Part shown: one piece after another, positions 5,974 to 64,000 of the stretch | Layout of the letters: each line of letters opens with the position of its first letter | Numbering within the stretch: position 1 is the first letter of the stretch | Source: a virus | Lineage: Duplodnaviria; Caudoviricetes | Reading direction: 5' to 3' (one strand) | Virus record (IMG/VR): IMGVR_UViG_3300036823_000389 | Location: 1,432-65,431 of that record | DNA: 64,000 nt | The notes under the pieces: model-generated | What the model saw: only the letters and a program-made list of their open reading frames with translations | What the model was told of the DNA's origin: nothing | Database searches by the model: none | Translations under genes and position numbers: made by a program

Positions 5974-6258
5974 AAATCCGGAGACGAGTCTAGAGGGGAG
6001 CCAAGTTCCGTGCCGGACGTTGACGGACATGACCCGGTCCGACGCGCCCCGAAAACCAGCCAAACCCTTGAAAAAGGTGGTGCCGATGCCCGCTTACGAT
6101 ATCGTGTGGAACGACGACCGTGGCCGCTTCGAGGTGATGGTGGCGGGCCAGATGGTCGGCTTTCATCGTCTCCGCGGCGGTGCGGAGGCGCTCGGTGCAC
6201 GTGTCGTGGCCAAGCCGACCCGCTAAGATGCCTACCTTGCAACCCATCGGAGCTTGCC

Positions 6259-10881: not shown

Positions 10882-13443
10882 TCAGACTGGATCGATGGTG
10901 TCGTTCTGGTAGTAGCGGCGGTCGTAGTTAATGACGGAAAGCTTGTAGGTTGCCGCGTCGTTTGGCGTCTTCTCCGCCACCAGAAAAGCTCTCCCGAGAT
11001 CGGTGTCGATATCGGGCACAATCCAGTAGGCCGCCCGTGCGGCATTCCGGATTTCAATCGACAACGAACTCGATGGCGCTTCCGCGAGCAGGACAGTTTT
11101 AGGGCTCGGACCTGGCACTATGGAGATCACATCCACAGTACCATCTGGAATCTGCAGCATGATCAGATAGTCGGTCTCCGGTGCGAAGATCGGCTTGCGG
11201 CTGAGTGTGAGGGCCAAGCCATCTTGGTCGATCACTTCTCCATCCTGTGTACCGGGCCGCGTGTTGTCGGCATTCAGGATCCGTTCGCTCTGTGCGACTA
11301 CGGCCGCCTGCTCGGTCGCGTCGAATTCGACGGCGAGCCGCTGCAACTGGGATTTCCAATAGGCGCGCCACGCCAACCAGGCCGCCGGCCGAAAGTTTCG
11401 AACTCCGACAGTATCGATCTTCTGCGGGTTGCCGGCAGAGCCATCCGTCGGAATACGGTATGTAGCGGCGGCGTCGAAATTTCCGCTATCGACATAGTTC
11501 AACTCGACGCCATCGTAGTCCTTCAGCGCGCCAAACCGCATGGTGCGTTTTTCCGAGCCCGGCAGCTTGTTGCGATGGTTGAACAGCATCGAGCTGTCCG
11601 GCGTTTCGCTTTCGAAGACGAGTTCTAGGACTGCGCCGCGCCGAAGCGCCGTGCAGAATATCGCCTGCGCAACCGATGTCAGTTCCTCTTCCGCCGGCAT
11701 CTGATCGTCGTCGAAGCTAAAGCCAAACTCCATGACGGAAGTGTCGCCGAAATAGGCCCCCACGGCAGCCACGGTGTCGTAAATCTGTGCGACGTTGAGC
11801 TCGGCGAGGCTCCGCCGGCCATTGTAAGGGTCGAGTGCTAGCGCGCAGAAGACATCAGCGGCGTTCTTGGACGCGGCTAATGTGTCCAAGAACCCATCGC
11901 CGTCGCGTACCGCAACGCGTCGGCAAACCAACGCGGTGAGTTTGCGCTCTTTGACGCCGAGAGCTGTCGGCGTTACCCGTGTCAGGCTGAGCATCGTCGT
12001 AATATTGCCGAAATCCTCCATCGCCACCGGCGCAGTCGCGAAGAGATCGCGCCATTTGATCTCGTCCGTCACGGTACCCTTGTAGAAATAGTCCGTTGGG
12101 GTCGTGCGCCAGGCGCGAAGACTGGACCGTCCTGACAGCGTAAGCGCCGCGCTGGCCGCCCGCTGCGTCTTGTCGACGCCCGAGCCTGGAAGCGTGATGT
12201 CGGTCGTCACCTCCGGACCGGTCGGCGCTCCTGATGCATCAACTGGGGTGACACCAAATCTTACTGTCACTGCGACGGGAAAAGAGTCTGACCCGTCCGT
12301 TTTGAAGCTGCCGCCCGGTTGGACAAGGTTCGCGATCGCGCCGGTGACCGTGGCGTCATCGACGATGACCGGTCCAACCACCTTAGTGGTGAGCCCTGAC
12401 GCATCCAGGGTACAGCTCGGGATCACCGGCGTCTGATGGCTGGCCATAGCGTTGACGATGGTCCAATCGGAATTCACCGACGCGGGGCTGACCAGCGTCA
12501 TTTCCGCATTCGAGACCGTGTCGATCGTGTAGGAACCGTCGAGATTGACCACATGGCCACTCCCATCGTCGGCGTGGGCGCCGCTGAGGACAATCCCGGC
12601 GCCCGCCTCGGCGAATTTTGTGAAGTTGAGATTGTCATCGTCGGTGCTGATGATGAAGTTCGGGTAGCGGAAGCGCAGGACAGGCGCCGTCGCGTCGCTC
12701 GTGTAGCTCTTGTAGTTCGGCGGATAGAGTGTCTGGCCGTTTATCCCATTCGATTTAAGGACCGTGACGACGCCCATTCCGATCGGGTTGCCGACGCGAA
12801 GCTGCGGATCGTCACCCGAGTTGGGCGAGGTGAACGGCGCGTAGACCTCGACGGTCTCACCCTCGATTTCAGATACAAGCGTGTCGCCGTCGCGGATGTC
12901 CGAGACGTCAAGTTCGCCGCGTGACACACCGAAATAGGACAATTCGCTTTCGTTGCCGCTGCTGTCGAATATTCTGAGCGGGACCATCAGATCGTCCGGC
13001 GTGCTGCGTTTTTCGCCGAAGATGTCCGGTATCCGGCCCAGCAGCCGCGCCTTGTTCTGGCGATCCCCGAGCTGGTTGTTGCTGCTATTGACGTTCTGGT
13101 TCAGCGCCGCCGGCTTCGGCACCAACAATCCGAGCAGCGCATAAAATGGTGCCAAAAGAACCGAAGCGACATCCTGCCAAGACCCGGGGCGTTGCTCGAG
13201 AAAGAACGGCCCGGGGAACGCGTTCAGTGCTTCCAGATCGCAACGATCACTCGGAGTCACGTCGCAATCTTGCGCGAAAGCGCGGTGATAGAGCCGCGTA
13301 TTCTCCGGCCATGACCAATGCCTGCGATCGCCGCTCCACCGTCCGACGTTGAGCGCGAGAAAATCGGCGACGTCCTCGACCTCGTGTTGCTGCCAGCTGG
13401 AGCGGTCAAAAACGTCGCGCGTGATCGTGACGGTCTTGGTCAT
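10882..13443 (-). CDS. Central tail fiber / tail tip protein (lambda J-like)
   Basis: RQNKARLLGRIPDIFG, YDGVELNYVD, INYDRRYYQND; synteny. Confidence 0.85.
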   Translation of the reverse strand: MTKTVTITRDVFDRSSWQQHEVEDVADFLALNVGRWSGDRRHWSWPENTRLYHRAFAQDCDVTPSDRCDLEALNAFPGPFFLEQRPGSWQDVASVLLAPFYALLGLLVPKPAALNQNVNSSNNQLGDRQNKARLLGRIPDIFGEKRSTPDDLMVPLRIFDSSGNESELSYFGVSRGELDVSDIRDGDTLVSEIEGETVEVYAPFTSPNSGDDPQLRVGNPIGMGVVTVLKSNGINGQTLYPPNYKSYTSDATAPVLRFRYPNFIISTDDDNLNFTKFAEAGAGIVLSGAHADDGSGHVVNLDGSYTIDTVSNAEMTLVSPASVNSDWTIVNAMASHQTPVIPSCTLDASGLTTKVVGPVIVDDATVTGAIANLVQPGGSFKTDGSDSFPVAVTVRFGVTPVDASGAPTGPEVTTDITLPGSGVDKTQRAASAALTLSGRSSLRAWRTTPTDYFYKGTVTDEIKWRDLFATAPVAMEDFGNITTMLSLTRVTPTALGVKERKLTALVCRRVAVRDGDGFLDTLAASKNAADVFCALALDPYNGRRSLAELNVAQIYDTVAAVGAYFGDTSVMEFGFSFDDDQMPAEEELTSVAQAIFCTALRRGAVLELVFESETPDSSMLFNHRNKLPGSEKRTMRFGALKDYDGVELNYVDSGNFDAAATYRIPTDGSAGNPQKIDTVGVRNFRPAAWLAWRAYWKSQLQRLAVEFDATEQAAVVAQSERILNADNTRPGTQDGEVIDQDGLALTLSRKPIFAPETDYLIMLQIPDGTVDVISIVPGPSPKTVLLAEAPSSSLSIEIRNAARAAYWIVPDIDTDLGRAFLVAEKTPNDAATYKLSVINYDRRYYQNDTIDPV

Positions 13444-13799
13444 CGATAGAACCTGGGCGAAGCGTAGCCATCGAGTGCCAAGTCGAGCCTCTCGAACCGC
13501 ACACCCTTTTCTGTGAGGTGGAGCAGGCGACCGCGGAGATAAACGCCGACGTGAGAATCTCCGCCGTTTTGCTGCCATAGGAGGACCAGGCACGGATCCT
13601 GGGGGCCGTCCAGCGCCTCGAAAGCCGCCACATCGCCCTTGTGAACACGGCGGTCCGCGGCCCCCTCGCGGAGCGCCTTGAGCCGCTCGCCGATGTCCAC
13701 ACCGACATGCGCCTGCCACACGTCCCGCGCGAAGTGCAGGCAGTTGTAAGCATCACCGCGGTGCCGCCGGGCGAGAAAGGGATCAACGCTCGCCAACAT
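13440..13799 (-). CDS. NlpC/P60-like tail tip assembly protein
   Basis: YNCLHFARDVW (Cys) and HVGVY (His). Confidence 0.8.
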   Translation of the reverse strand: MLASVDPFLARRHRGDAYNCLHFARDVWQAHVGVDIGERLKALREGAADRRVHKGDVAAFEALDGPQDPCLVLLWQQNGGDSHVGVYLRGRLLHLTEKGVRFERLDLALDGYASPRFYR

Positions 13800-47647: not shown

Positions 47648-48408
47648 GCCGCCGCGTCCTCCGGCCAAAGTACTTGCTCGCCCTTACCGGCTCCTTCGAA
47701 TTCCCAATTCCAGACGGATGGCTTGCCGGTGACGATTTCTAGATAGGAGCCATCGACCTTTTCCCGCCGTACGAACTTGGCGACGAAGTTGAACTCGCCA
47801 CGCGTCTCGCAGCGCCAAACAGCGCCCTCTGGTGTTTCGAGTGCGCCGTGATGCCCGAATGGCCCCAAGGCCTTCAGAGCGTCCTCAACGGCGAAGGCCG
47901 GACCATCCGACAACACCGCAGCTGCGCGCAGATCACACTGCTTGAATAGCTCGCGCGCGCCGTCGTGGTTGTGCCGCGACTTTCCGCAGATCAGGTCGAA
48001 CGCGACCAACAGTTCGCCCTCGTCGGCGATCAAGTATCGCGTGCCGTGCGCCTGGGCGAGCCATTCGCCGGCGATGCGCGCACCTTTTGGAATGTGGCGC
48101 GAGAATCGAGCAGCGCGTTCCTGCACCCATTCGGCGAAGCGATGGTGCTGCACATAATGAGAATCAGCGGCGTGATAGCCAGCCCGGGTCAGCGGCACGA
48201 TCGCGCCGTCGATGTTCGCGATAGCGACACACGAACCGTCGAGCTTCTCGGTCACGATGATGCGGTCATGCCGGTCGCGGATCCTGTCGCACAGGATCGC
48301 GGCCTGGCCGGCGCCGATGCTCCAGTCTCCTGGACCCAACCGGCTGTTCGGCAGATGCGGGATGCTGCCGTATGCCTTTCGCGCGAGCGGTTTGCTGGGC
48401 TTGTTCAT
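47644..48408 (-). CDS. ATP-dependent RNA ligase-family nucleotidyltransferase
   Basis: Motif I TEKLDGS, GEW, AFDL, EGAV, KFV. Confidence 0.75.
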   Translation of the reverse strand: MNKPSKPLARKAYGSIPHLPNSRLGPGDWSIGAGQAAILCDRIRDRHDRIIVTEKLDGSCVAIANIDGAIVPLTRAGYHAADSHYVQHHRFAEWVQERAARFSRHIPKGARIAGEWLAQAHGTRYLIADEGELLVAFDLICGKSRHNHDGARELFKQCDLRAAAVLSDGPAFAVEDALKALGPFGHHGALETPEGAVWRCETRGEFNFVAKFVRREKVDGSYLEIVTGKPSVWNWEFEGAGKGEQVLWPEDAAA

Positions 48409-48746
48409 CGCGCCCTACCAGCCATCATTCGTGCGAGCGACGGTGGTTTGATCGTTGACGACATCGCAGCGGTGGCTGGGGTCGGCCTGACCGGCAGGCG
48501 CGCGAATTCGCCTTGGGCGACCTTCAAGAGGTGATTTCGGTTGGCGAGATGCAACAGGGCGCCGGCGATCGTCATCGTGCTGCAGCTGTCGCCACCAGTT
48601 CCAACCATGAAGGCGCGCAAGTCTTTGGCGCGAAAACTCGTGTGAGCGGCGCCATAGAGATTGGCGGCGAGCAAGACGCGCTCATGCACAGGGCCGAGCG
48701 CTTCAACGCTCTTCGCCTGCGGTAGTCGATGGAACGGTGTTCCCAT
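48405..48746 (-). CDS. Hypothetical, winged-helix-like protein
   Basis: Coupled ORF; TIAGALLHLANRNHLLKVAQGEF. Confidence 0.45.
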   Translation of the reverse strand: MGTPFHRLPQAKSVEALGPVHERVLLAANLYGAAHTSFRAKDLRAFMVGTGGDSCSTMTIAGALLHLANRNHLLKVAQGEFARLPVRPTPATAAMSSTIKPPSLARMMAGRAR

Positions 48747-49300
48747 CAGCGCGCACCCCTTAATTCCATGAACCGGTACGACCAGGCCTGCGCTGCATCG
48801 TTCGGCAGGAGAGGAACGAGCTCGCCCTCGACAGCCTCGTATCGTTCTAGGTTCCAATCACCGCATGGGTGCATGAGATGTTGACGCTCGAAGCGCAGAG
48901 CGCGGACGTCCGCGTATTTGACGTCTTTCGGCCAAGGGAAACTCAGACCGAACTTGCGTGCGATCACTCGCTCGATCCGCTGTTCGATCGTCTTGAAGTT
49001 CGGTAGATATTGTTTCAACGGCGAGACGACGTCGCCGACATAAGCTTCCGCAGCGTCGTGCAGGAGACCCGCCAAAGCGAACTCGCGCGGGACCAGCTTG
49101 CTGACCAGGACGCAGTGCTGCGCGACCGAATAGAACTCGCGGGTGTGACCCGCGAAGCGGCAGGTATTCGCCAAGCCGCGCGCGATATCGATCTCGACAA
49201 CCATGTCGACGGTAGGTCGCATGATGTCGAAATACCGGCCCGACGACGTGAGGATCGTCGAACCCTTCACGCCGGCAGGTGCTGCTGCGGAGCGGCTCAA
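48746..49300 (-). CDS. HD-domain phosphohydrolase (YfbR/YfdR-like)
   Basis: [27 protein letters not shown]. Confidence 0.88.
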
Positions 49301-49548
49301 GACTTCATCCCCAGCGCGCTGAGGTAGAGGTCGAGCATCGCCTCTTGCTCTTGGCGGTCGGCACTTTCCATTTTGCGAAGGCGGATGACCTGGCGCAGGA
49401 TTTTGGTGTCGAAGCCGGTGCCCTTGGCCTCGGAGTAGACTTCCTTGATGTCGTCGGCGAGTGCCTTCTTTTCCTCCTCAAGCCGCTCGATGCGCTCGCA
49501 ATAAGCGAGCAAATGTTCTTTCGCAAAACCTGACTTGGCCATATCCAT
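49297..49548 (-). CDS. gapR: GapR/DUF2312 nucleoid-associated protein
   Basis: [42 protein letters not shown]. Confidence 0.92.
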
Positions 49549-51540: not shown

Positions 51541-51691
51541 GGCCGGCCGAAATCAGATGGGGTGGCAAACCAAAGAATTTGGCGATGTCGGCGATGGCAA
51601 ACTTGCGAACGTCGAGCGCGGCGGCATCACCAACGGACAAATCCAGCGGTGCGAAGGCGACGGGCGCGGCGATGTCGTGAGGGACGCTCAT
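51377..51691 (-). CDS. Small protein containing a portal-like peptide
   Basis: ATGA-coupled to cro; FAPLDLSVGDAAALDVRKFAIADIAKFFGLPPHLI. Confidence 0.55.
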   Translation of the reverse strand: MSVPHDIAAPVAFAPLDLSVGDAAALDVRKFAIADIAKFFGLPPHLISAGPSWSRCWDLTEIAQHFVPSQPRAGSPAAVSESPLSESALLPGLSRRAKDAGGSE

Positions 51692-51918
51692 GCTGCCCTC
51701 CGTGGTTTGGAGGTAGGGCGCACAACTGCGGGAATTTCAAAAAAATCGTTGGGCGTTACGTCGCCCTCGGTAAGTTCGGTGAGCTTTTGCAGCACCGCCG
51801 GTTCTGGAACCCTGTCCCGCTCGTACCGGCCAACTGCAACGGAACTTACGCCCAGCAAAGAGCCGAGTGCCTCTTGGCTTAGTCCCTTTTCAACACGCCA
51901 TGCTTTCAGTCGGCTCAT
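51688..51918 (-). CDS. cro: Cro-like XRE regulator
   Basis: LSQEALGSLLGVSSVAVGRYE, G.VTPNDF; divergent from cI. Confidence 0.88.
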   Translation of the reverse strand: MSRLKAWRVEKGLSQEALGSLLGVSSVAVGRYERDRVPEPAVLQKLTELTEGDVTPNDFFEIPAVVRPTSKPRRAA

Positions 51919-51925
51919 GCAGCAT

Positions 51926-51990
51926 GACATAACCAATACGGTATATTTGTCAACCGATACGGTTATTGCAACGCTTGAACCGGTGCGGTT
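51926..51990. promoter_or_regulatory. OR operator region with PR promoter
   Basis: AACC-N5-GGT(T)-type sites at 51931, 51952 and 51978; minus-strand TTGACA(51953)-16-TATGTC. Confidence 0.8.
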
Positions 51991-51999: not shown

Positions 52000-52620
52000 A
52001 TGAACGCGATTGCCCAATTACGAGCGGAGCGCGGCTGGTCCCAAGAGGATCTAGCGGAAAAGCTCAACACGACTGCGGTCTCAGTCGGACGTTATGAAAA
52101 GCAGGATCAACGGCTGACGCTGCCACTTATGCGAAGGGTGGCGAAGGTTTTTCGCGTTTCGGTCGCCCAAGTAGCTGGCGAAGCAAGCAGCACGCCGCTC
52201 GACCACACTGGCGTGCCTGTCTACGACGTCCGTGCCGCCGCCGGCGCTGGAGCTTTTTTAGTGGATGAACAGAGCGAGCCATCGCACTACCTAATGTTTC
52301 GCGAGCAATGGTTGCGGCGAGTCTCGCGCGATATTTCACAGCTTATAGTGCTGGAGGTGTCGGGTGATTCAATGTGGGATACACTCCATGATGGTGATCA
52401 CGCTTTAGTTGATCGGTCACAGCTTAACCCACGTAGAGAAGGCCTTTACGTCCTAAGAATTGACGACGTGCTCCAAGTCAAAAGGCTTTCGATGCACCCC
52501 GTATCAAAGCTTCTGACAATCAAGAGTGATAACGCGAATTACCCGACTTATTCCGACATAAATCCCGACGATATTGCGCTGGTTGGCAGAGTTGTTTGGA
52601 TAGGGAGGGCACTGGGATGA
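52000..52620 (+). CDS. cI: CI-like repressor (XRE HTH plus S24 autopeptidase)
   Basis: WSQEDLAEKL, AAAGAG cleavage region, VSGDSM (Ser), VKRL (Lys). Confidence 0.93.
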   Translation: MNAIAQLRAERGWSQEDLAEKLNTTAVSVGRYEKQDQRLTLPLMRRVAKVFRVSVAQVAGEASSTPLDHTGVPVYDVRAAAGAGAFLVDEQSEPSHYLMFREQWLRRVSRDISQLIVLEVSGDSMWDTLHDGDHALVDRSQLNPRREGLYVLRIDDVLQVKRLSMHPVSKLLTIKSDNANYPTYSDINPDDIALVGRVVWIGRALG

Positions 52621-53252
52621 GTGCACGCACACCGCTTTTCTCAACTTTGGCAATTCTAATCGTGCTCGGTTGCTTTGCTAGCGCGCAGGGAGCTACAGAC
52701 TTTGGGAAATTGGGTCATGTGACGGGCAACGGGTTTATTGCCACCTTCGCGGGCAAAACCGCCGATGGATATACATTTTCGATAGACCGCGATGGCATAG
52801 GTTCGGTCCGCGGTCCGGGAATAGACGATTACTGGACGGTTCATTGCAGAACCGACCAGATGACCGATCAGCGCATTTGCATTCTCGATTGGGAATTCAG
52901 CCTGTTTCTGCGCTTTGCGTTTACATATCCGGCCTTCCCCGCTGAAATCTGCGTCACCAACACTGATTATATGATCGGCCGTCCGATGATGAGGATAGAC
53001 GAGCATTTGCCGTTTGAAGGCAGTCCAGGCGCTTGTTTCAAACGAGAGCAAATCCCACAGATAATGAACGCTATGCACTCGGAGAATCGCATACGGGTGC
53101 GCACGAATCACATTGCGAACACGCGCATTGTTGACGTGGATGGGCGTGCTACGAGGGCCTATGCGATCGCGCGCGACCTAGTTCAATTTCTATTCTATAA
53201 ATCAGACGCGGGAATTTTATGGCGCCGCCTCCCGGCCCCGCACCATATATAA
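52617..53252 (+). CDS. Exported protein coupled to cI (rex/sie position)
   Basis: ATGA overlap with the cI stop; signal peptide LAILIVLGCFASAQG; visibly lower GC. Confidence 0.65.
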   Translation: MSARTPLFSTLAILIVLGCFASAQGATDFGKLGHVTGNGFIATFAGKTADGYTFSIDRDGIGSVRGPGIDDYWTVHCRTDQMTDQRICILDWEFSLFLRFAFTYPAFPAEICVTNTDYMIGRPMMRIDEHLPFEGSPGACFKREQIPQIMNAMHSENRIRVRTNHIANTRIVDVDGRATRAYAIARDLVQFLFYKSDAGILWRRLPAPHHI

Positions 53253-53289
53253 CCGTATCGGTTGACATATAACCAATACGGTTTATAAC
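53251..53289 (+). promoter_or_regulatory. OL operators and PL promoter
   Basis: AACCGTATCGGTT (53251) and AACCAATACGGTT (53271) match the OR sites; TTGACA(53262)-16-TATAAC. Confidence 0.85.
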
Positions 53290-53327: not shown

Positions 53328-53588
53328 ATGGCAGACCATGATCGCGTCGCTGAAAATGTCGGCTGCAATGGCAGCCCCGGTATCGAGGCCGAGCTTTCGC
53401 GCTTGACGGCAGAGTATGCCGGCTGGTGCGAAGCACAGGGTCTCAGCCTCGGAAGCGCCGACGAACACCTTGACGACGAAGACTTGAGCGATGCTCAGCG
53501 CACGTGGTTGTGTAATTTCAACGCTCGCTGGGAAGCGGCGTCTCCAGTTCACACGGGTCGCGGCTTTGTCCGTCAGGGCGATCTGTGA
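53328..53588 (+). CDS. First PL-operon hypothetical protein
   Basis: GGAGA RBS; acidic 86-aa ORF. Confidence 0.6.
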   Translation: MADHDRVAENVGCNGSPGIEAELSRLTAEYAGWCEAQGLSLGSADEHLDDEDLSDAQRTWLCNFNARWEAASPVHTGRGFVRQGDL

Positions 53589-54263: not shown

Positions 54264-54844
54264 CGCATTTTCTCTTTCGTTGGGCTTCGCAACTCCAACG
54301 AAGGGCGAGTCGGACGGCACCGTCAAGGAAACGGCCGGCTCGCCCACTTTCTGCGGGGCGGCGCCGCGATGAACGCCATGTCCAACTCCTGCACATGGGC
54401 GGCGCGCCTGCGGTTCGCAGCATTCGTGATCGCGTCGGCGCTGCTGACGCTGGCCTTGGGCTACTACCTGCTCACCGAGGGCGCGATATGATCCGGCGCC
54501 TACTCATCTTCTGCTGTCTCCGTCTCACCGCATACTTGAGCGGCTGGCGCATCGATGCTGACGGATGGTGGACGCGCCCGCTACGCAAGGGCGACACGCC
54601 TATTGGTGACTCCGCGATTGGCTTTCTCGCAGATCATTCTCTGCCAGGCGAGCCAGCCGGACCGTATGTCCGCACGGCGGCTTTGGCACTCGCATATGAC
54701 GGGGCCGCAGCATGAGCTCGGACCTCCACAAATCTCCACCCGTCTTCATGCCAATGCAGCTCAAGCTGCTTATCGCCGGGTTGGTGATCTTGTTTGTCGG
54801 TGGCGCGGCAATCGCTGTTTCAATTTTAGCGAAAGGCTGACGCC

Positions 54845-55763: not shown

Positions 55764-56681
55764 ATGAACGCACACGTAAAGCCGCATGCCACAGCGCCGA
55801 CGCTGATCAGACCGGACGCGAGTTCGCCCGTCTTCAAGGTGACCGACCGCGACAGCCTAGTCGTGAAGGCCGGAACGACCTTCGCCGCTCACACCTTCGC
55901 CGGAGACACTGCGGTTCCGCTTCACCTCAACGCCGGTGCCGAGCCCGGGTATGTCCCGGGCGCCGATTATGTCGTCAACTTCGATGGCACCACTCTGTCG
56001 GTCGCGCGCCTGACCGGTATCCCGGATGGCGAGACGTTGCTCGGTGGCTTCCACTACGCGCCAGGCGGCAATGCGCCAGCGCGCAGCGGCGGCGACGATA
56101 TCCCCGCGATCAATCCCTTCTCGCTGTGGGACATCGCATTCCGGCCCTCCTGCCCCGACCCGCGCGGGATGGCGCTGGTCGAGACGCCCAGTGGCTGCTT
56201 CTGGTGCGACATTTACCTGACCGGATCGAATCATCTGGCCGACGGCACGAGCAAGTTCGGCGTGACCATCGCCGATGGCAATGACCCGCCGCACGATGCC
56301 AATGGCACGAAGTACAGAAGGTTCGACTTTGCGACGGCGCAGGCCGCGATGGTGTCGCATGGCAAGGGGTTGCTCAGCATCGAGGAGTTCTTCGGCGCGG
56401 CATTCGGCGTCACCGAGAAAACGGCGGCGGCACGCGACCCGAAAACCACCGGCCTCGACGCAGCGCGCACTAGCCGCTTCGGCCTGATGCAGGCGACGGG
56501 CAATCTGTGGATCTGGGGCCACGACGCCGACCCCGACATGCCGCGTGCTTCGCTCTTCGGCGGGTCCTGGCTCGGCGACGAGGACGCGGGCTCGCGCTAC
56601 GCGGACCTCGGCTACTGGCCGGGCGACTCGGACGGCGGCGTCGGCGCGCGCGGGCGCAGTGACCACCTGCAGCTTGCATAG
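55764..56681 (+). CDS. DGR target 1: Mtd-like C-type lectin-fold protein (305 aa)
   Basis: GGFHYAPG, IN.FSLWD..FRP...DPRGM, FWCDIYL, GTSK, QATGNLW.WG, GARG..DHL.L resemble BPP-1 Mtd; C-terminal VR. Confidence 0.92.
   Translation: MNAHVKPHATAPTLIRPDASSPVFKVTDRDSLVVKAGTTFAAHTFAGDTAVPLHLNAGAEPGYVPGADYVVNFDGTTLSVARLTGIPDGETLLGGFHYAPGGNAPARSGGDDIPAINPFSLWDIAFRPSCPDPRGMALVETPSGCFWCDIYLTGSNHLADGTSKFGVTIADGNDPPHDANGTKYRRFDFATAQAAMVSHGKGLLSIEEFFGAAFGVTEKTAAARDPKTTGLDAARTSRFGLMQATGNLWIWGHDADPDMPRASLFGGSWLGDEDAGSRYADLGYWPGDSDGGVGARGRSDHLQLA
56538..56663 (+). repeat. DGR variable repeat VR1
   Basis: 126-nt ungapped match to TR; 15 mismatches, 14 at TR adenines (hand alignment). Confidence 0.95.
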
Positions 56682-56700
56682 AAGCCGCGACAGCGGCTTC
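56681..56700 (+). promoter_or_regulatory. DGR target-recognition hairpin 1
   Basis: GAAGCCGC-GACA-GCGGCTTC, a perfect 8-bp stem directly after the IMH. Confidence 0.85.
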
Positions 56701-56723
56701 CCAAAACTCTCAACAGGGACACC

Positions 56724-57641
56724 ATGACCATGAAAAAGCGGATCACGAAGAAGAAGGCAGGCGCGCCGAAGGCGATGCTCGTCAAACGCGACAAAACAAG
56801 CCCTGCAATCAAGGCTGCCGGTCTCAGCGCTATGCTGCGGGCGGGCGTCACGTTTCGCGGGGTCGCCTTCAAGAAGGACACGGCCGTCAAGGCGCCTGCC
56901 GTGGGCTATGCGGTGGGCTTCGATTACATCGTGACCATCGTGCGCGGCGCGCCGGTTGCGCAGCTGATGGAGACGGCCCGCATTCCCGCAAACGCGATCG
57001 GAGGCTTCCACTTTGCCCCTGGTGGCAATGCCACGGGCAAAGCTGGCGGCGACGGTACGCCGGCGATCAATCCTCATTCCATTTGGGACCGGAATTTTCG
57101 TCCGGCCTGCGGTGATCCGCGCGGCATGACGCTGGTGAACGTACCCGGCAAGAGCCGCGTCTGGTGCGATATCTACCTGCTCGGCAAAGACCATCTCGAG
57201 AACGGCACGAGCCGGCATGGAGCGACAATAGCGGACGGCACGGACCTGCCGCAAAACCCCGCTGGTGGCTATTTTTCGCGGTTCGATTACGCCGCGGCAT
57301 GCGCGGTGATGAACCATCACGGCAAGCAGCTTCTCGGTGCCGAAGAGTTCTTCGCAGCAGCTTATGGCGTCACCGAGAAAACCGCTGCGCAGGCGGAGCC
57401 GAAAACAACGGGCCTCGATGCGCTACGAACGAGCCAGTGGGGCTTGATGCAAGCGACGGGCAACATGTGGTCATGGGGCACAGACGGTCACCCCGATATG
57501 CCGCGTGCTTCGTTCTTCGGCGGTTCCTGGCTCTCCGACGAGGGCGCGGGCTCGCGCTTCGCGGCCCTCGCCAGCTGGCCGGACTACTCCAGCGACTACA
57601 TCGGCGCGCGCGGGCGCAGTGACCACCTGCAACTTGCATAG
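56724..57641 (+). CDS. DGR target 2: Mtd-like C-type lectin-fold protein (305 aa) with a Lys-rich N-terminus
   Basis: Same Mtd motifs as target 1; C-terminal VR. Confidence 0.92.
   Translation: MTMKKRITKKKAGAPKAMLVKRDKTSPAIKAAGLSAMLRAGVTFRGVAFKKDTAVKAPAVGYAVGFDYIVTIVRGAPVAQLMETARIPANAIGGFHFAPGGNATGKAGGDGTPAINPHSIWDRNFRPACGDPRGMTLVNVPGKSRVWCDIYLLGKDHLENGTSRHGATIADGTDLPQNPAGGYFSRFDYAAACAVMNHHGKQLLGAEEFFAAAYGVTEKTAAQAEPKTTGLDALRTSQWGLMQATGNMWSWGTDGHPDMPRASFFGGSWLSDEGAGSRFAALASWPDYSSDYIGARGRSDHLQLA
57498..57623 (+). repeat. DGR variable repeat VR2
   Basis: 126-nt ungapped match to TR; 14 mismatches, 13 at TR adenines (hand alignment). Confidence 0.95.
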
Positions 57642-57660
57642 CCGACGCGACAGCGGCGGC
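57641..57660 (+). promoter_or_regulatory. DGR target-recognition hairpin 2 (one stem mismatch)
   Basis: GCCGACGC-GACA-GCGGCGGC; same loop and position as hairpin 1. Confidence 0.75.
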
Positions 57661-57676
57661 ACGAGATTTTCGCGCG

Positions 57677-58048
57677 ATGATCACCAGGGATGACAACACC
57701 AGCACCGACGCCCTGGCGATCGTCGAGAAATACGAGACGTTTGTGAAATATCTGTACCCGATCGTTCAGCGAAGCCCAAAGCACCACGGCGTCCTCCGGG
57801 ACGCCGTGATTGCGGAAATGTTCGTCACGGTCGGCGATCTCTATCACGCTGCAAAGTCGCGGCAGCTCTCACGGCTCTACCAGGTCGATGCGCGCTTCGC
57901 GACGCTGCGTTCCTATCTGCGCTTCCTCGCCAGCCACGAGATACGCGTCCTCACGCCGAAGAACAACGCTCATGCCTTGAGCCTGCTCTCGGAACCGGGG
58001 CGCATGCTCGGCGCTTGGCAAAAGAAGCTCAGAGGGCAGAAGGGGTAA
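57677..58048 (+). CDS. avd: DGR accessory variability determinant
   Basis: 123-aa basic helical protein; YLYP, PKHH, LRSYLRFL, EPGRMLGAW; lies just before TR. Confidence 0.9.
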   Translation: MITRDDNTSTDALAIVEKYETFVKYLYPIVQRSPKHHGVLRDAVIAEMFVTVGDLYHAAKSRQLSRLYQVDARFATLRSYLRFLASHEIRVLTPKNNAHALSLLSEPGRMLGAWQKKLRGQKG

Positions 58049-58050
58049 GT

Positions 58051-58176
58051 ATGCCGCGTGCTTCGATCTTCGGCGGTTCCTGGCTCAACGACGAGAACGC
58101 GGGCTCGCGCTACGCGAACCTCGACAACTGGCCGGACAACTCGAACGACAACATCGGCGCGCGCGGGCGCAGTGAC
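58051..58176 (+). ncRNA. DGR template repeat TR
   Basis: Seven AAC codons; GC-only element followed by IMH* (AGTGACGACCGG), which diverges from the VR IMH (AGTGACCACCTG). Confidence 0.95.
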
Positions 58177-58362
58177 GACCGGAATACGACGCGGCGGCGA
58201 TTACGGTCCCGCCGGTCTTCCACGGCCGCGCGTAAGCGGTTTCGGTGGTCAGCCCATCTGTCCTGCTTCGGCGAACACACTCCAAGGTCCGGCATAGCGG
58301 GGCGTAGCGGAGCAACCCGTCGAGACCCGCGGCCGGCTTTCTTTTCAATAGGAGGCGACCAC

Positions 58363-59364
58363 ATGACCAGGCGGTTCAGGAATCTGATCGGCAAGATCGT
58401 CTCCCAGGCGAACATGGCCGAAGCCTATCGCCTGACCTGCGCCGGCAAGCGGCAGACGCCCGGCTATCTTGAGTTCAAGGAATATGCATCGCTCAACCTC
58501 GCAGACCTCGCTCGGGACATGGCCGAAGGGAGATACGTCGCCGGCGCGCCCTATGAGTTCCATGTGTTCGATCCGAAAAAGCGTTTGATCTCGGCGCTGC
58601 CGTTCCGCGATCGCGTCGCTCAGCAGGCGTTGTGTCTCGTCATCGGACCGATCTTCGAAGCTGCACTCTTGCCTCGGACCTTCGCCTGCCGTCCAGGCAA
58701 GGGCGTGCATGCCGGTGTCGTGCAACTGCAAAGCGAGATGCGCCATCTCACGCGGGGCGGCTCAGCGCTCTATTTCCTCAAGACCGATTTCCGCGGCTAT
58801 TTCGCTTCGATCAATCGCACGATCCTATGGCGGCTGATCGAAGCGAAGATTTCCTGCCGCGCGACGCTGCGGCTGATCGAGACGATGGTCCCTCGCAAGG
58901 GCGTTGGCTTGCCGATCGGAAGCCTGACATCGCAGATCTTAGCCAACCTCTATCTGGGCGCGACGCTCGACCGTCACCTGCAGCAGACGCTCGGCGAGCG
59001 CGCCTGGTATCGCTACATGGACGACATCGTTGTGCTCGGCGCCGATCCCGATCATCTGCGAAGCCTTAAGACATCGATTGAGGCCTACGCGCGCGACCGG
59101 CTCGGCCTCGCCTTTTCGAAATGGAGCATCGCCAGCGTCGCGCGCGGGGTAAATTTCCTCGGCTATCGGGTCTGGACTACCCACAAGCTGCTGCGCAAGG
59201 CCAGCGTCACGCGGGCGCGACGGAAGCTCAAGGCCTATCGCGCGCGCGGCGATGCGGAACGGCTACGGAAGTTCAAGGCCGCATGGCTGGGCCATGCGAG
59301 CTGGGCCGACAGCGCCAATCTGATCAAGAGCTTGGGCCTGCAGAATCCAGAGAGGCGCACATGA
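58363..59364 (+). CDS. DGR reverse transcriptase (333 aa)
   Basis: GGAGG RBS; PKKRLISALPFRDRV, LKTDFRGYFASI, GLPIGSLTSQ, RYMDD, NFLGY. Confidence 0.95.
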   Translation: MTRRFRNLIGKIVSQANMAEAYRLTCAGKRQTPGYLEFKEYASLNLADLARDMAEGRYVAGAPYEFHVFDPKKRLISALPFRDRVAQQALCLVIGPIFEAALLPRTFACRPGKGVHAGVVQLQSEMRHLTRGGSALYFLKTDFRGYFASINRTILWRLIEAKISCRATLRLIETMVPRKGVGLPIGSLTSQILANLYLGATLDRHLQQTLGERAWYRYMDDIVVLGADPDHLRSLKTSIEAYARDRLGLAFSKWSIASVARGVNFLGYRVWTTHKLLRKASVTRARRKLKAYRARGDAERLRKFKAAWLGHASWADSANLIKSLGLQNPERRT

Positions 59365-59410: not shown

Positions 59411-60544
59411 ATGTCCGACACAAAGACACCCAAACATGGGACCGGAATTGAATGGACCAAGCGACCCGGAACGCGTGGCGAGACCCTCAATCCAATCCGG
59501 GCGCGCAACCGCGAAACGGGCAAGCTCGGATGGTTCTGCATCCACGCTAACCCCGACTGCATCAACTGCTATGCCGAGACCCTGAACGTGAAAGGCGGCG
59601 ATTCCGGCGGCAATGGCATCGCGTACAAGGCGCAGCTAGTCGACCGCGTTGAAATCTCCCTGGACGAGGACCGCGTGACGCAGCCGCTGCGGTGGCGCCA
59701 GCCGCGCACGATCTTCCTCTGCTCGATGACCGACCTTTTTGTGGACTTCGTTCCATTCCCGTGGATCGACCGCGTCTTCGCGGTCGCAGCGCTGGCGCCG
59801 CAACATACTTACATCATTTTGACGAAGCGCCCGAAGCGGATGCGAGATTATTTTAATGGCACGCCGCAGCCGCGCTGGATGGCTGCAATGCGAGAGATCG
59901 CGCCGCCGGCCGACAGCCGCGGCGTTCCGCTCGACACCAAAAATGGCGCGTTGCCAAATGTCTGGCTCGGGACGAGCTGCGGCACGCAGAAGACTGCCGA
60001 TGAGTTCATTCCCGATCTGCTCGCCACGCCGGCGGCCGTACGATTTGTATCGGTTGAGCCGATGACCGGGCCTGTCGATCTCTATAATGGCGACCCGGAT
60101 CCTCGTCTTGGCGGGCATCAGGCGACGCAGACGTTCTTGGGAGAATGGTGGGAGCCCGGCGCCGCGAAGAATTCGCCGCCTCACCACGGGCTCGATTGGG
60201 TGATCTGCGGCGGCGAGAGCGGCCCCAAGGCGCGGCCGATGCATCCGGAGTGGGCGCGGTCGCTCCGCGACCAATGCGCCGCGGCTGACGTTCCGTTCTT
60301 CTTCAAGCAATGGGGAGAATGGGCCCCGGGCGAGAACAGCGATCGCGCCCAGACCCGCACCGAGCGAACGGCGTCCTGGTCCGTTGACGCATGGACGTTC
60401 GAAAACATCACCGCGAGCTATTCGCAGGAGATGCATGCCGACGACGAGCCCGATCTGTGGCGCCTTGGGAAGAAACAGGCCGGCCGGATGCTCGATGGAC
60501 GCACACATGACGAATTTCCGCTGGTCCGAGGTTGTCGAACATGA
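59411..60544 (+). CDS. Phage Gp37/Gp68 (DUF5131) radical-SAM-like protein
   Basis: IEWT, CIHANPDCINCYAE, SMTDLF, LTKRP, SVEP, GGESG, FFFKQWG. Confidence 0.9.
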   Translation: MSDTKTPKHGTGIEWTKRPGTRGETLNPIRARNRETGKLGWFCIHANPDCINCYAETLNVKGGDSGGNGIAYKAQLVDRVEISLDEDRVTQPLRWRQPRTIFLCSMTDLFVDFVPFPWIDRVFAVAALAPQHTYIILTKRPKRMRDYFNGTPQPRWMAAMREIAPPADSRGVPLDTKNGALPNVWLGTSCGTQKTADEFIPDLLATPAAVRFVSVEPMTGPVDLYNGDPDPRLGGHQATQTFLGEWWEPGAAKNSPPHHGLDWVICGGESGPKARPMHPEWARSLRDQCAAADVPFFFKQWGEWAPGENSDRAQTRTERTASWSVDAWTFENITASYSQEMHADDEPDLWRLGKKQAGRMLDGRTHDEFPLVRGCRT

Positions 60545-60780
60545 CCGTCCGGATCACAGCGTGGAAAAAGACGATCGACGGGCTGCTGGCATGCGAGCCC
60601 GGTGACATCTTGGCCGTTGCCTGGGATGTCCGCTATCCGGGCTCCTTCTTCGGAATGCCGCTCCAATTCGAGGATCGTCACCAGGCAGAGCGGATTGCAC
60701 ATGCGCTTTCGGTGGCGTTCCGGGCCGGCGGCGAAGCCAAGCTCCGCGAGCTGCGGCAGTTCATAGGGATATTGCCATGA
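60541..60780 (+). CDS. Hypothetical protein
   Basis: ATGA-coupled on both sides. Confidence 0.5.
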   Translation: MTVRITAWKKTIDGLLACEPGDILAVAWDVRYPGSFFGMPLQFEDRHQAERIAHALSVAFRAGGEAKLRELRQFIGILP

Positions 60781-61661
60781 CGCCCGCGGCTGCGCTTCGC
60801 CATTGGGTTTGCGAGCGGGAAGCAATTAGGCTGCGCCGGGAGACAGGCACGCTGACGCCGTGGACCGATGATCCGATCCTCGCGAAATACCGCTTCTGCA
60901 ATGTGCGGCGCGAGGACGACAGGGTCACCATCTGGATACGCGAAAACATCCGCGAGAAGTTCGCCGATCATCCCCACCTCTGGTTCATGTTGGCGATTGG
61001 GCGCTGGATCAACTGGCCGGACACGCTTGTGGAGCTGATCGGTAGCATCGACCCGGGCCAAGCTTGGCCCAGCGGCCCCGGCTTCACGCTGCGCCACCTT
61101 TCTGACGTCCTGCATCGGCGCGAGGCGCGCGGTGAGAAGGTTTGGACGGGCGCCTACACCATCAATGCGCCGTCGAAGAAAGGCGGCTCGAAGATCGACC
61201 ATGTCGCGATGACGGTGCTGGGCGGGGTATGGCTTGCGCGAGACCGTATCAGCCGCATGCTGGAGGGCGTTCGCACGCCGGCGACGTTACGCGCCGCACA
61301 TGCGGAGTTGTTGAGCTATCCGGGCTGGGGCGCGTTCATGGCCTATCAGCTCGTGGTCGATCTTCGGTTCACGCGGTACCTCGCCGGTGCCGAGGACATC
61401 GCGACCTGGGCCGCGGCGGGGCCCGGCACCATTCGCGGCCTAAATCGCATCGCCGGCCGGCAACTCGACTACCGGTTGGAGCAGTGGCAAGCGCTTAACG
61501 AAATGCGCACGCTGTTCGCTACGATCCAAGGGGAGATTGGCGTCGCGATGGATTTCTCCGACGTGCCTAACATCCTCTGCGAGACCGATAAGTATCTGCG
61601 AGTGCTGAACGAGGAAGGAACGCCGCGCGCACTGTACCATCCGCATGGGGGACGCTTATGA
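60777..61661 (+). CDS. aGPT-Pplase1 / amino acid:DNA transferase-family protein (HhH glycosylase fold)
   Basis: WTDDPILAKYRFCNVRREDD, TGAY, G.GAFMAYQ...DL, GPGTIRGL, LCETDKY. Confidence 0.8.
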   Translation: MTPAAALRHWVCEREAIRLRRETGTLTPWTDDPILAKYRFCNVRREDDRVTIWIRENIREKFADHPHLWFMLAIGRWINWPDTLVELIGSIDPGQAWPSGPGFTLRHLSDVLHRREARGEKVWTGAYTINAPSKKGGSKIDHVAMTVLGGVWLARDRISRMLEGVRTPATLRAAHAELLSYPGWGAFMAYQLVVDLRFTRYLAGAEDIATWAAAGPGTIRGLNRIAGRQLDYRLEQWQALNEMRTLFATIQGEIGVAMDFSDVPNILCETDKYLRVLNEEGTPRALYHPHGGRL

Positions 61662-61666
61662 ACGCG

Positions 61667-62260
61667 CTAAAGGCACGCTGGAGGTGGCGCGGGAGCGAAG
61701 GCGTTGAGAGCTACGCGTACGATGTTGAGTTCGGCACGGATTTCATCGTGCCTGGTACGAATCCAAGCCGTAAGGCGCTGCAGATCGTCGGCGCTGCTCG
61801 TCGCCTCGGCGACGTAGGACCGGTTGAATTGCTCGACCTTGTAGAGCAGCAGCACGGCCCGGCGGGCCAACGTCGGGGGCAGCGCGTCGAAATCTTCGTA
61901 AAGGTTGTCGCTCCACCCTACCTTGATGGAGAGTGCAGGAAGCCAGGTCTCTTTCGCTGGCACGCCCGCACGCGCCAGACTGCTCCGAAGCTGGTAGAGC
62001 TGCGTGCTATTTGTGCTGATCCCGGCAAGATGATCGAGTCCGCGGAGGATTTCCTCGACGACAGGAATCAGTCGAAAGGCAGCAATATTTGCGCGGGCGT
62101 CACGCGCGGCGCCCTCGCGGGCGCGATCCACGTCTTTAAGGTCCAGCGCTTGCCTTGCCTGATCGCGCGCGACGCTCACCGTAAACCGAATGGCGGCACC
62201 GGTCGCGCAGGTTTGGGCCACCGCCGCAAACGCAATTACCCAGTTAGGATCAAAGCTCAT
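61667..62260 (-). CDS. Antisense-oriented moron with an N-terminal TM anchor
   Basis: WVIAFAAVAQTCATGAAI followed by a helical domain; fills the gap between plus-strand genes. Confidence 0.55.
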   Translation of the reverse strand: MSFDPNWVIAFAAVAQTCATGAAIRFTVSVARDQARQALDLKDVDRAREGAARDARANIAAFRLIPVVEEILRGLDHLAGISTNSTQLYQLRSSLARAGVPAKETWLPALSIKVGWSDNLYEDFDALPPTLARRAVLLLYKVEQFNRSYVAEATSSADDLQRLTAWIRTRHDEIRAELNIVRVALNAFAPAPPPACL

Positions 62261-62289
62261 CTTGTAAACCTTAGCACGGTGAGGAGGGC

Positions 62290-62634
62290 ATGAGCATCCC
62301 TGTTCGACTGAGGCTCTCCCGCCGCAAGGGCTTCCGCCTCCAAACATTGAGCTTGGCGACCAATGGGCTTGCAGCGGTCGTCGTTACGCGGGCGAGCAAG
62401 AAATGGGGCAACCCGTACTATGTCGGCATGTTCCGCGACTATGACCGCGCGGACGCCGTGCGAGATTTCAAGAAATGGATCGACGGCGACCACGGCGCGC
62501 GCGCATGGGCCGGCGCGCCGCCAACTGACACCGAGATAAGAGCCTCGCTGCGCGGCCATAATCTAGCCTGCACATGCCCACTCGACGGCGGCCCCTGTCA
62601 TGCCGATGTGCTGCTGGAGATCGCGAACAGATGA
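62290..62634 (+). CDS. DUF4326 protein
   Basis: RRKGFR, KWGNPY, LRGHNLACTCP...CHADVLLE. Confidence 0.85.
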   Translation: MSIPVRLRLSRRKGFRLQTLSLATNGLAAVVVTRASKKWGNPYYVGMFRDYDRADAVRDFKKWIDGDHGARAWAGAPPTDTEIRASLRGHNLACTCPLDGGPCHADVLLEIANR

Positions 62635-62873
62635 GCCGGACGCGTGGCAGCGAAATTGAACCCCGCGGCCTCCGCCGCGAGAACGCTGCGCGTTATCTCG
62701 GGATATCCCCGTCAAAGTTCGATGAGTTTGTTGGCGACGGCCGTCTTCCGGGACCGAAACAGTTGGATGGCTGCGTCGTCTGGGATCGCCACCGGCTTGA
62801 CGACGCCTTCGAAGCCTTCCCTGATAGGGATGCCGCGCCGGCCGTCAATCGTTGGAGCAACGTCGCGGCATGA
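62631..62873 (+). CDS. xis: Excisionase (AlpA-like HTH)
   Basis: PRGLRRENAARYLGISPSKFD...WDRHRLD; overlaps int. Confidence 0.8.
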   Translation: MSRTRGSEIEPRGLRRENAARYLGISPSKFDEFVGDGRLPGPKQLDGCVVWDRHRLDDAFEAFPDRDAAPAVNRWSNVAA

Positions 62874-64000
62874 TGGACGCCGCCGACATGCCAAAGCGCC
62901 TGCCGAAGTACTGCTTCGAAGAGGATCGCCCCAGCGGCATCCGGATCCGCTTGCGCGCGCCGAACAGGCCGAAAGTCACGCTGCACGGCGTGCCGTGGTC
63001 TGAACCGTTCATGGAAGCCTATCGCCGAGCGCTGGACACAGTCGCGCCGGAGCAGACTGCGCACGGCCCCGTCGTCGGAAGCTGGGAATGGCTGTGCCGC
63101 AAATTCTTCGCGAGCATCGATTTCAAGATGTCACAGCGCACCGGCAAGCAGCTTTCGGCCGGTCACGTTCTCCAACGCCGGCGCGCGCTTGAGAAGACGT
63201 TCGAAGAGCCATTGAGCCCAGGTTCGATTGATGTGTTCGGCGAGATGCCGATCGCCATGATGGCGCCGAAGGCGGTGAAGGTCCTGCGCGACCGCCTGGC
63301 GGCGACGCCCGACATGGCGAACAAGCGCCTGAAGGCCGTGCGCCAGGCGCTCGCCTTCGCCGTGAGCGAGAGCCTGCTCAAGCACAACGCCGCGCGCGAG
63401 GTCAGCGGCTTCCAGATCATCACGGACGGCTTCTACACCTGGACGGAGGAAGACGTCGCGGTGTTCGAGAGGACGTACGCGCCCGGCACGCGCGAGCGGC
63501 GCGCCCTCGCGATGCTGCTCTACGCGGGGCCGCGCTGCATCGACGTCGTGAAGTTCGGCCGGCAGATGCTCTACAAGCCGGTGAAGACGGACAGGACGCA
63601 GCTGGCCAGCCGCTGGCTCAAGTTCATGCCGCACAAGGGCGAGAACGTCACCGGCAAGGTGATCGACATCCCGGTCCTGCCGGTGCTGCTCGCCGAGTTG
63701 GAACGCGCGCCGAAGGACAGCCTGCTCTACATCGAGAACCGCTACGGCCGTGACTTCAGCGCTAAGGGGTTCGGCAACTGGTTCAAGGATGCCTGCACCA
63801 GCGCGGGCCTGCCGCAGTGCTCGGCGCATGGCTTGCGCAAAGCAGGCGCAACGATCCTCGCCGAGCTCGGCGCGACGCCACACCAGTTGATGGCGATCTA
63901 TGGCTGGTCGAGCGTGAAGGAAGCCGAGCGCTACACGAAGAAGGCGCAAGGCAAGAAGCTGGCCGAGGCCGGCCTGCGCCTGATGAGTGCTCCCAAGTAA
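62870..64000 (+). CDS. int: Tyrosine integrase
   Basis: GPRCID (Arg), HGLRKAGAT, YGW...AERY. Confidence 0.93.
   Translation: MMDAADMPKRLPKYCFEEDRPSGIRIRLRAPNRPKVTLHGVPWSEPFMEAYRRALDTVAPEQTAHGPVVGSWEWLCRKFFASIDFKMSQRTGKQLSAGHVLQRRRALEKTFEEPLSPGSIDVFGEMPIAMMAPKAVKVLRDRLAATPDMANKRLKAVRQALAFAVSESLLKHNAAREVSGFQIITDGFYTWTEEDVAVFERTYAPGTRERRALAMLLYAGPRCIDVVKFGRQMLYKPVKTDRTQLASRWLKFMPHKGENVTGKVIDIPVLPVLLAELERAPKDSLLYIENRYGRDFSAKGFGNWFKDACTSAGLPQCSAHGLRKAGATILAELGATPHQLMAIYGWSSVKEAERYTKKAQGKKLAEAGLRLMSAPK

Follow-up and report, generated by a model that had tools for sequence, protein, structure and literature searches.

The diversity-generating retroelement (DGR) of the podovirus BPP-1 is the closest described counterpart of the element reported here. 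Its cassette, with the single target Mtd, is on the late strand behind bbp9, a tail-fibre gene. In two other cultured phages the Mtd-type gene also lies in a structural module: a 494-residue Mtd-domain protein follows the tail-fibre gene of Marinomonas phage P12026, and mtd stands between head and tail genes in Synechococcus phage S-CBS3. As far as their accessible text goes, large DGR surveys assign Mtd-like targets to the tail or virion by homology alone (PMC5758913; Roux et al. preprint), and the same portion of the Roux et al. preprint proposes that a kinase-bearing viral DGR target manipulates host signalling. The present locus belongs to a tailed phage (Duplodnaviria; Caudoviricetes) and was found in IMG/VR record IMGVR_UViG_3300036823_000389, of which positions 1,432 to 65,431 were analysed (hereafter the window, 64,000 nt; all coordinates refer to it). 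It is a complete DGR with two tandem Mtd-like targets, placed by the gene map in the early-left operon of a lambda-like prophage, outside the late operon.

The target proteins form a large subfamily that retains the beta-sandwich and lectin fold of Mtd and lacks its N-terminal segment and one loop, and related cassettes sit in early, lysogeny or DNA-metabolism neighbourhoods. From sequence and gene order, the proteins are tentatively read as free hypervariable binders made early and not mounted on the tail by the classic fibre-tip route, a reading whose probability we place a little below even.

The DGR cassette and its target proteins

Profile searches and repeat analysis recovered all parts of a BPP-1-type DGR at 55764–59364, intact as the preliminary description of the window had stated, in the order target 1, target 2, bAvd, template repeat (TR) and reverse transcriptase (RT). 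Each target ends in a variable repeat (VR), compared below with the TR by in-register alignment; IMH stands for the initiation of mutagenic homing element and IMH* for its TR counterpart.

55764–56681, plus strand: DGR target 1, 305 residues, short Mtd-subfamily protein with beta-sandwich and C-type lectin fold, Pfam mtd_2nd
56538–56663, plus strand: VR1, 15 mismatches to the TR, 14 at TR adenines
56681–56700, plus strand: hairpin after VR1, behind the target 1 stop, 8-bp stem and GACA loop, −13.3 kcal/mol, z −4.3, reached by 0 of 200 shuffles
56724–57641, plus strand: DGR target 2, 305 residues, paralogue of target 1 with a Lys-rich N-terminus, Pfam mtd_2nd
57498–57623, plus strand: VR2, 14 mismatches to the TR, 13 at TR adenines
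57641–57660, plus strand: hairpin after VR2, behind the target 2 stop, −13.6 kcal/mol, z −2.2, reached by 7 of 200 shuffles
57677–58048, plus strand: bAvd accessory gene, Pfam PF22296 (1.9e-25), NCBIfam DGR Avd NF033474 (9.2e-31, above the 80-bit cut-off)
58051–58176, plus strand: TR, 126 nt with 25 adenines, third repeat copy, followed by IMH*-like divergence
58369–59364, plus strand: DGR RT, 331 residues, RVT_1 (9.6e-19), PHROG 'Reverse transcriptase' (4.1e-112)

The bAvd gene was placed between VR2 and TR. The RT and BPP-1 Brt shared 53% identity over 325 residues, with the IGSLTSQ motifs of the two aligned, and the Pfam matches of the two targets to mtd_2nd (PF21916; 7.7e-06 and 1.1e-05) were above cut-off. 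The start codon of target 1 is real: GGAG lies 9 nt ahead of its ATG and the first Met is kept in the homologue alignment.

A 131-nt repeat was present in three copies in the window (56537–56667, 57497–57627 and 58050–58180). TR adenines accounted for 27 of the 29 mismatches of VR1 and VR2 combined, reproducing the earlier count, and the 22 internal TR adenines counted earlier were located at 58066–58153. All 25 TR adenines fell at codon positions 1 or 2 in both targets, and the two non-A changes (58077 T>G and 58143 G>C) left the encoded residues unaltered in the target translations. Both VRs depart from the TR, and from one another, at A sites, which shows that the DGR has been active in the past. 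In two paralogous genes that stand in tandem, the RT, bAvd and the TR have rewritten the final 40-odd codons by adenine-specific mutagenic retrohoming.

All three repeat copies ended in a 24-nt GC-rich segment (three window matches with at most 3 mismatches, against 0.01 expected). Immediately past this end the VRs and the TR part in a pattern like that of IMH versus IMH*. Together with the hairpins, these are the end elements that had been proposed for each VR. The TR matched just three places in the 3.13-Mb assembly (82% complete), with no copy beyond those already described, so that there is no further DGR target in it and none in the tail genes, and the putative fibre open reading frame (ORF; 9231–10823) is without a VR, as had been claimed. 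No VR variants were visible in the assembled contigs of two public soil DNA runs, in which contigs break at VR ends and drop rare variants.

Residue 19 of target 1 aligned with residue 57 of BPP-1 Mtd, and identity reached 38% over 291 residues. The Pfam scan that placed Mtd_N at residues 5–41 (1.3e-16) and mtd_2nd at 66–169 of BPP-1 Mtd gave no Mtd_N match in either target even at E ≤ 10, nor was a split or upstream-encoded Mtd_N found at E ≤ 1 in the seven ORFs between the PL-like promoter (see below) and target 1; an intact Mtd N-terminal domain was thus looked for in the targets and not found. A profile of 62 family members had Mtd as its sole match among solved structures (E 2.9e-72) and covered Mtd 53–311 and 335–379, so that the family lacks Mtd residues 1–52 and loop 312–334. 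This beta2-beta3 loop takes 5 profile positions where Mtd has 23; in target 1, an 18-residue gap faces Mtd 313–330 and a Pro stands opposite Mtd Tyr333. In Mtd, according to the accessible part of the structural report, loop residues Tyr322 and Tyr333 reach into the binding site of the neighbouring protomer (PMC2408619).

Alignment, Pfam and profile therefore agree with the earlier statement that the targets match Mtd from the beta-sandwich onward without its N-terminal prism. The term 'anchorless', which had been derived from the missing N-terminus, stands as far as the absence of Mtd_N is concerned but is not diagnostic, as the target of a tail-module cassette (L114, see below) is also without Mtd_N. 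No hydrophobic core was recognised by eye in the N-termini of the two targets.

The AlphaFold2 model of target 1 (mean predicted local distance difference test score (pLDDT) 69, predicted template-modelling (TM) score 0.73) was confident in the sandwich and lectin core, with pLDDT of 82–96 over residues 11–100 and below 50 at residues 1–9, the first DSSP strand residues at 14–15, and low confidence in the hypervariable C-terminal VR part. In Foldseek, its only matches at E ≤ 0.001 were the Mtd structures 1yu0–1yu4 (TM 0.66).

Among candidates of similar length, at least 897 proteins matched the target at E ≤ 0.001, from Bradyrhizobium, Rhodopseudomonas, Xanthobacteraceae and other Rhizobiales, and several carriers are listed as cultured isolates (e.g., strains of Rhizobium, Mesorhizobium and Shinella). 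A length of 280–330 residues was found for 112 of the best 120 homologues, and in an alignment of the 111 of them measuring 285–330 residues the first Met was kept in 95% and Asn2 in 68%. Seven of the eight homologues longer than 330 residues were inspected: five were read-through from an upstream ORF with the internal start retained (MN in four), one had an extended C-terminus and one an unexplained 80-residue N-terminal extension. By eye, none of the seven contained beta-prism-like sequence (no Mtd_N scan was made on them). The 8–16 residues ahead of the first conserved motif were variable across the family and rich in Ala, Thr, Pro and Ser; a Lys-rich N-terminus as in target 2 recurred once in the sample. 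The sequence comparisons thus define the targets as members of a distinct, large Rhizobiales phage Mtd subfamily of about 300 residues, in which sandwich and lectin fold are retained.

The predicted repressor-controlled arm that carries the cassette

The 68 predicted ORFs of the window were scanned against PHROG and Pfam. A 22-nt sequence identical to the 3′ end of tRNA-Lys(CTT), whose gene lies 58 nt past the integrase stop and just beyond the window end, delimits a prophage of about 61.8 kb that would run from 2249 to window-equivalent position 64074. The features on which its layout rests are as follows (HTH, helix-turn-helix).

2249–2270: attL core, an exact 22-nt match to the tRNA-Lys(CTT) 3′ end
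9231–10823, minus strand: putative fibre ORF, 530 residues, comes after the J-like gene, called a fibre in the preliminary description
10882–13719, minus strand: J-like tail protein, from the PHROG/Pfam scan
51688–51921, minus strand: cro-like HTH gene, first of the leftward lytic arm, HTH_3 (4e-10), start codon uncertain
51931–51990: OR-like region, three 13-bp palindromic operator copies between cro and cI
52000–52620, plus strand: CI-type repressor, HTH_3 (2.7e-11) and Peptidase_S24 (2.7e-18)
53251–53289, plus strand: OL/PL-like region, two operator copies over a TTGACA-16 nt-TATAAC promoter facing the DGR arm
59411–60544, plus strand: DUF5131 gene, Pfam 1.5e-78
62574–62873, plus strand: tentative xis-like gene for a small HTH protein, whose HTH_17 match (E 0.054) falls short of the Pfam cut-off
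62852–64000, plus strand: tyrosine integrase, last gene of the arm, Pfam 1e-08, PHROG integrase 1.2e-18

Between about 51 kb and about 9 kb, the minus strand carries DNA-metabolism, packaging, head and tail genes, including helicases, methyltransferases, an HNH endonuclease, terminase, portal, protease, capsid and tape measure. From cI through the integrase all genes are plus-strand genes that overlap or leave small gaps, and the ORF map thereby confirms that the DGR is on the strand opposite all structural genes. Past the DGR the order is DUF5131, a homologue of the 5-hydroxymethyldeoxyuridine (5-hmdU) DNA kinase, DUF4326, the xis-like ORF and int; the xis-like ORF had tblastn matches to ORFs immediately upstream of int in three related loci (L015, L020 and L021). 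The lambda map runs PRM-cI-moron-OL/PL-early-left operon-xis-int. The order here is PRM-cI, one moron, OL/PL and about 20 same-strand genes, ending in xis-int-att.

The promoter at the head of the arm was found through its operator repeats. The 13-bp palindrome had six matches in the window with at most 2 mismatches, against 0.65 expected, and five of them lay in two clusters. The second cluster (53251–53283) is right behind the single ORF downstream of cI, and the OL/PL-like region is an inverted near-copy of the cro side (38 nt at 79%). A generic promoter scan of 51–64 kb gave nothing useful; it accepts only a -10 box that ends in T, and TATAAC was therefore missed. Past the PL-like promoter, the first ORF begins at 53328, and a further stretch brings the distance from the promoter to the start of target 1 to 2.5 kb. 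In the related locus L019, an operator-like 21-mer is duplicated, with one copy before the repressor gene and three heading a DGR arm that carries the gene of a single-stranded DNA-binding protein, a clamp-like gene, DUF5131, the DGR and int; the OR/OL duplication is clear in L019 and unclear in L012 and L013. These motifs support the earlier proposal that the DGR arm lies downstream of a CI-controlled PL.

The 45 kb that had been given as the distance between cassette and fibre is correct for target 1 on the integrated map but does not hold across attP, where coordinate arithmetic gives 11.7 kb from the putative fibre to the RT end and 15.3 kb to the target 1 start. A late transcript cannot express the targets even so, because the genes are convergent also across attP, with int and attP between them. 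The putative fibre itself had no family match in the PHROG and Pfam scans and no likeness to BPP-1 Bbp9.

The location of the cassette downstream of cI and on the same strand is what would be expected if it served the lysogen, low read-through from the cI transcript yielding hypervariable binders that block superinfecting phages or other invaders. Regions near int often carry defence genes, and the neighbouring DUF5131 gene matches the PADLOC candidate families PDC-M41B and PDC-M30B. Against such a service, which we regard as very improbable, the arm should be shut in the lysogen because two operators overlie its head promoter, neither an effector domain nor a PADLOC match is present in the targets, and 21 viral contigs (see below) have the cassette in a lytic early-right operon.

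Some other genes of the prophage deserve mention. The ORF at 52596–53252 (211–218 residues) overlaps the cI end and stops just before the OL/PL operators, a place that corresponds to that of rexAB in lambda. It had no family match in the Pfam and PHROG scans, its N-terminus is signal-peptide-like by eye (a hydrophobic run, then AQG), and it is a candidate lysogen-expressed surface protein. The regions 59411–62634 and 45218–49300 may together encode a thymidine hypermodification pathway in a temperate phage: the DGR arm contributes DUF5131, the 5-hmdU DNA kinase homologue (PF18723, 7.6e-49) and DUF4326, and 45218–49300 holds a deoxynucleoside monophosphate phosphatase homologue, an RNA-ligase-domain protein, an 816-residue methyltransferase and a helicase-methyltransferase fusion. 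A GapR-like DNA-binding gene (49297–49548; PF10073, 5.3e-34) lies early in the lytic arm, and GapR-like homologues occur near the DGR cassettes of L008, L011, L014, L017 and L094. A gene for an SOS-response-associated peptidase (SRAP; 6010–6963) is inside the prophage between attL and the tail end.

Placement of related cassettes

Twenty related genome loci were found, of which 13 with long flanks were annotated with PHROG, the other seven being short contigs or left out. In 12 of the 13 the cassette had a CII-like and/or repressor gene on one side and, no more than about 5 kb from the RT, an integrase gene on the other. Of these 12 integrase genes, 11 were on the strand of the cassette and that of L011 was on the opposite strand; the integrase of L014 was a serine integrase. 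In the remaining locus (L004), the cassette lay ahead of primase, antiterminator and terminase. No other tail-category gene was found within 10 kb of the cassette in the 13 loci; L004 has a 'Neck1' match just before its terminase.

In IMG/VR, 381 relatives were found, and the best 80 gave 77 loci and, after dereplication, 69 clusters. These were assigned to context classes with a tblastn panel of markers drawn from the annotated genome loci.

Switch-to-int arm: 19 of 69 clusters
Early rightward operon: 21 of 69 clusters, with integrase/repressor upstream on the other strand and/or terminase 3–8 kb downstream
After head genes: 2 of 69 clusters, the most distant matches (41–47% identity), RT not found
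No marker found: 27 of 69 clusters

Placement near xis/int or in the early replication operon, for which a survey of related prophages had been suggested, was therefore seen in all 13 genome loci and in 40 of the 42 classifiable viral contigs. Throughout the sample the subfamily cassette occupies early, lysogeny or DNA-metabolism neighbourhoods, in two genome layouts. PHROG confirmed six of the early-rightward-operon loci, where the cassette had ParB-methyltransferase, methyltransferase, helicase, primase and replication-initiator genes as neighbours and HNH, TerS and TerL downstream. More generally, cassettes of the family sit among orphan DNA methyltransferases and other DNA-modification genes.

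Four whole prophages that were compared had nothing in common beyond the DGR parts and DUF5131, and no tail protein was shared by the four, which favours independence from a given tail. DUF5131 was near the cassette in 8 of the 13 genome loci and 19 of the 69 viral loci. The family had no match in 72,556 plasmid records. A quick RT tree (38 rows, Shimodaira–Hasegawa-like approximate likelihood ratio support only, midpoint root) placed Brt on a long branch outside the 37 other rows; on it the arm label needs at least two changes, and every row stays in the early region.

It might be argued from these data that the position means nothing for the targets, the cassette being a mobile module that lands in accessory hotspots of the early region, or its RT needing co-expression with replication. 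The cassette switched arm at least twice on the RT tree, it travels with DUF5131 across otherwise unrelated prophages, and decayed or partial cassettes exist (e.g., L094). Such a module would, however, be expected at late-operon ends too, as in BPP-1 and L114, and the 53 classifiable close-family loci include no such insertion, the two most distant ones apart. Relocation moreover goes along with an altered protein, which has lost the loop, and a meaningless position is accordingly held to be improbable.

Two targets were present in 27 of the 69 viral clusters and three in L014. In L004, L037/L038, L046, L050, L053 and L056, a second target lies 1.4–6 kb from the target-avd-RT unit, with other early genes between, and in L046 it is on the opposite strand. 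L094 (9899–11405) has an intact short-Mtd target and a 180-residue RT fragment without Avd next to a terminase, and looks like a decaying cassette.

Role of the targets and comparison with known systems

Under the tentatively favoured reading, induction or infection would remove CI control and open PL, and the targets, Avd, TR RNA and RT would then be produced early, so that both diversification and expression would precede virion assembly. The target proteins would act as free hypervariable binders, not mounted on the tail by the fibre-tip route. In favour of this reading are the operator-bearing promoter that faces the arm, the early placement of related cassettes and the lack of a tail protein common to the four whole prophages. 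Mtd-type proteins encoded in structural modules, moreover, keep the loop, and the early-operon family is without it.

A serious competitor, somewhat doubtful in our judgement, is that both targets are virion receptor-binding adhesins like Mtd, made early and added in trans to the tail or another particle surface through the beta-sandwich or the short N-terminus, with the DGR switching or widening host range. The likeness of target 1 to Mtd, the only protein it significantly matches among solved structures, and the structural-module position of the Mtd-type genes of BPP-1, P12026 and S-CBS3 agree with this, as does the beginning of the L114 tail-module target at the beta-sandwich. Distant long relatives are fused to tail-fibre-type N-termini (DUF2793 in 6 of 32; PHROG tail-fibre matches in P0144), the family is seen in phage contexts only, and two Mtd-like targets in one phage have been interpreted, in the part of that article available, as a doubled BPP-1 tropism mechanism (PMC11792537). 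Several results speak against adhesins. A tail-module position was found in none of the 13 genome loci and in 2 of the 42 classifiable viral contigs, both holding the most distant relatives; the target genes of the window are on the strand opposite the late genes; the four whole prophages have no tail protein that accompanies the cassette; five other carrier genomes, searched with the putative fibre as query, gave no match to it, and it has no likeness to Bbp9; and the loop that helps to form the trimeric binding site is missing.

The case for free binders has weak points of its own. Early transcription is compatible with later incorporation into the virion, for which a few dozen copies per particle would suffice, and does not exclude it. 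The beta-sandwich, part of the intertwined trimer body of Mtd, is retained, and the missing prism proves little given that the L114 target lacks Mtd_N as well. The variable N-termini of 8–16 residues could be short anchors fitted to different tails. That no plasmid record carries the family suggests that it is phage-bound, as a virion part would be, although this fits any phage-bound role. The placement of the cassette may serve the RT and TR, not the targets; a terminator-like hairpin cluster (54772–54830) lies between PL and the DGR; and the 27 unclassified viral contigs might hide other layouts, the classes resting on our own tblastn panel.

A more specific proposal is that in a clade of temperate phages the DGR leaves virion binding unaltered and serves to evolve soluble antibody-like proteins within the phage population. 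Made at the start of the lytic cycle, these would have variable host components inside the cell as ligands, such as strain-specific defence proteins. The proposal is put forward as an unlikely possibility; if true, it would be the first adaptive, hypermutation-based counter-defence by a virus of bacteria. A coherent large subfamily breaks both ties of Mtd to the tail, gene position and oligomer-related elements. If the targets are not carried by the virion, they would represent a second, unexplored use of phage DGRs, and host-range predictions made from such cassettes would be wrong.

In the literature, no paper was found that places an Mtd-type DGR in the early operon of a phage or in a prophage of Rhizobiales (supplementary per-locus tables may hold such contexts). 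Going by the accessible portions of the reports, two other systems come close in part. The gut phages nd4 and nd12 (tgt2), with the tentaclins, also have phage DGRs with two targets and short, single-domain, prism-less C-type lectin targets (PMC10743442). Unlike here, these targets are without the beta-sandwich too; they are assigned to DUF6273, and the authors read them as receptor-binding (PMC10743442). The DGR of Toutatisvirus is likewise cargo of an accessory-gene hotspot by the integrase of a temperate phage, in part of the lineage only, but that hotspot follows the tail genes while the cassette described here is inside a repressor-controlled early operon (10.1101/2024.10.15.618418). Its targets are read as virion proteins; one is Hoc-like or a tentaclin, and the other is encoded by a core gene at a distance of 17 kb (10.1101/2024.10.15.618418).

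With BPP-1 the present DGR shares the order target-avd-TR-RT, bAvd, adenine-specific mutagenesis, the GC-rich end, IMH-like divergence and hairpin after each VR, and a target homologous from the beta-sandwich to the C-terminus. The prophages are also alike in their divergent cro and cI and in having int at the end beside a tRNA att site. They differ in that the cassette here is in the cI-to-int arm behind a PL-like promoter, holds two targets instead of one, and encodes proteins without Mtd 1–52 (including Mtd_N) and loop 312–334; the host phage, moreover, is a siphovirus with a tape measure.

The nearest tail-module contrast is L114, a prophage in a metagenome-assembled genome of Mesorhizobium, thus of the same bacterial order. 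Its Avd and TR are arranged in the same way, and over 322 residues its RT has 64% identity to that of the window. Its target, too, has the beta-sandwich as its first domain and gives no Pfam Mtd_N match, so that absence of the prism alone is no proof of tail independence. In contrast to the window, its cassette follows the genes for baseplate hub and wedge and precedes those for holin, endolysin and spanin, and its target is 50% identical to Mtd, keeps loop 312–334 and is only 43% identical to the target of the window.

The long homologues (n = 32, DUF2793 in six) are more distant. At L113 (9001–10689, Jiella sp. M17.18), a 562-residue DUF2793-Mtd fusion has an intact Mtd-type C-terminus; no RT or Avd lies within 9 kb, few phage-like matches are nearby (including a GtrB-like gene), and it may be an orphan or remote target. 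P0144, which carries the N-terminal tail-fibre matches, is 54% identical to Mtd 48–380 and has the loop intact. With the loop preserved in L114, P0144 and the other tail-type proteins, the loop-less short family is a separate branch, in which relocation to the early region was paired with structural change.

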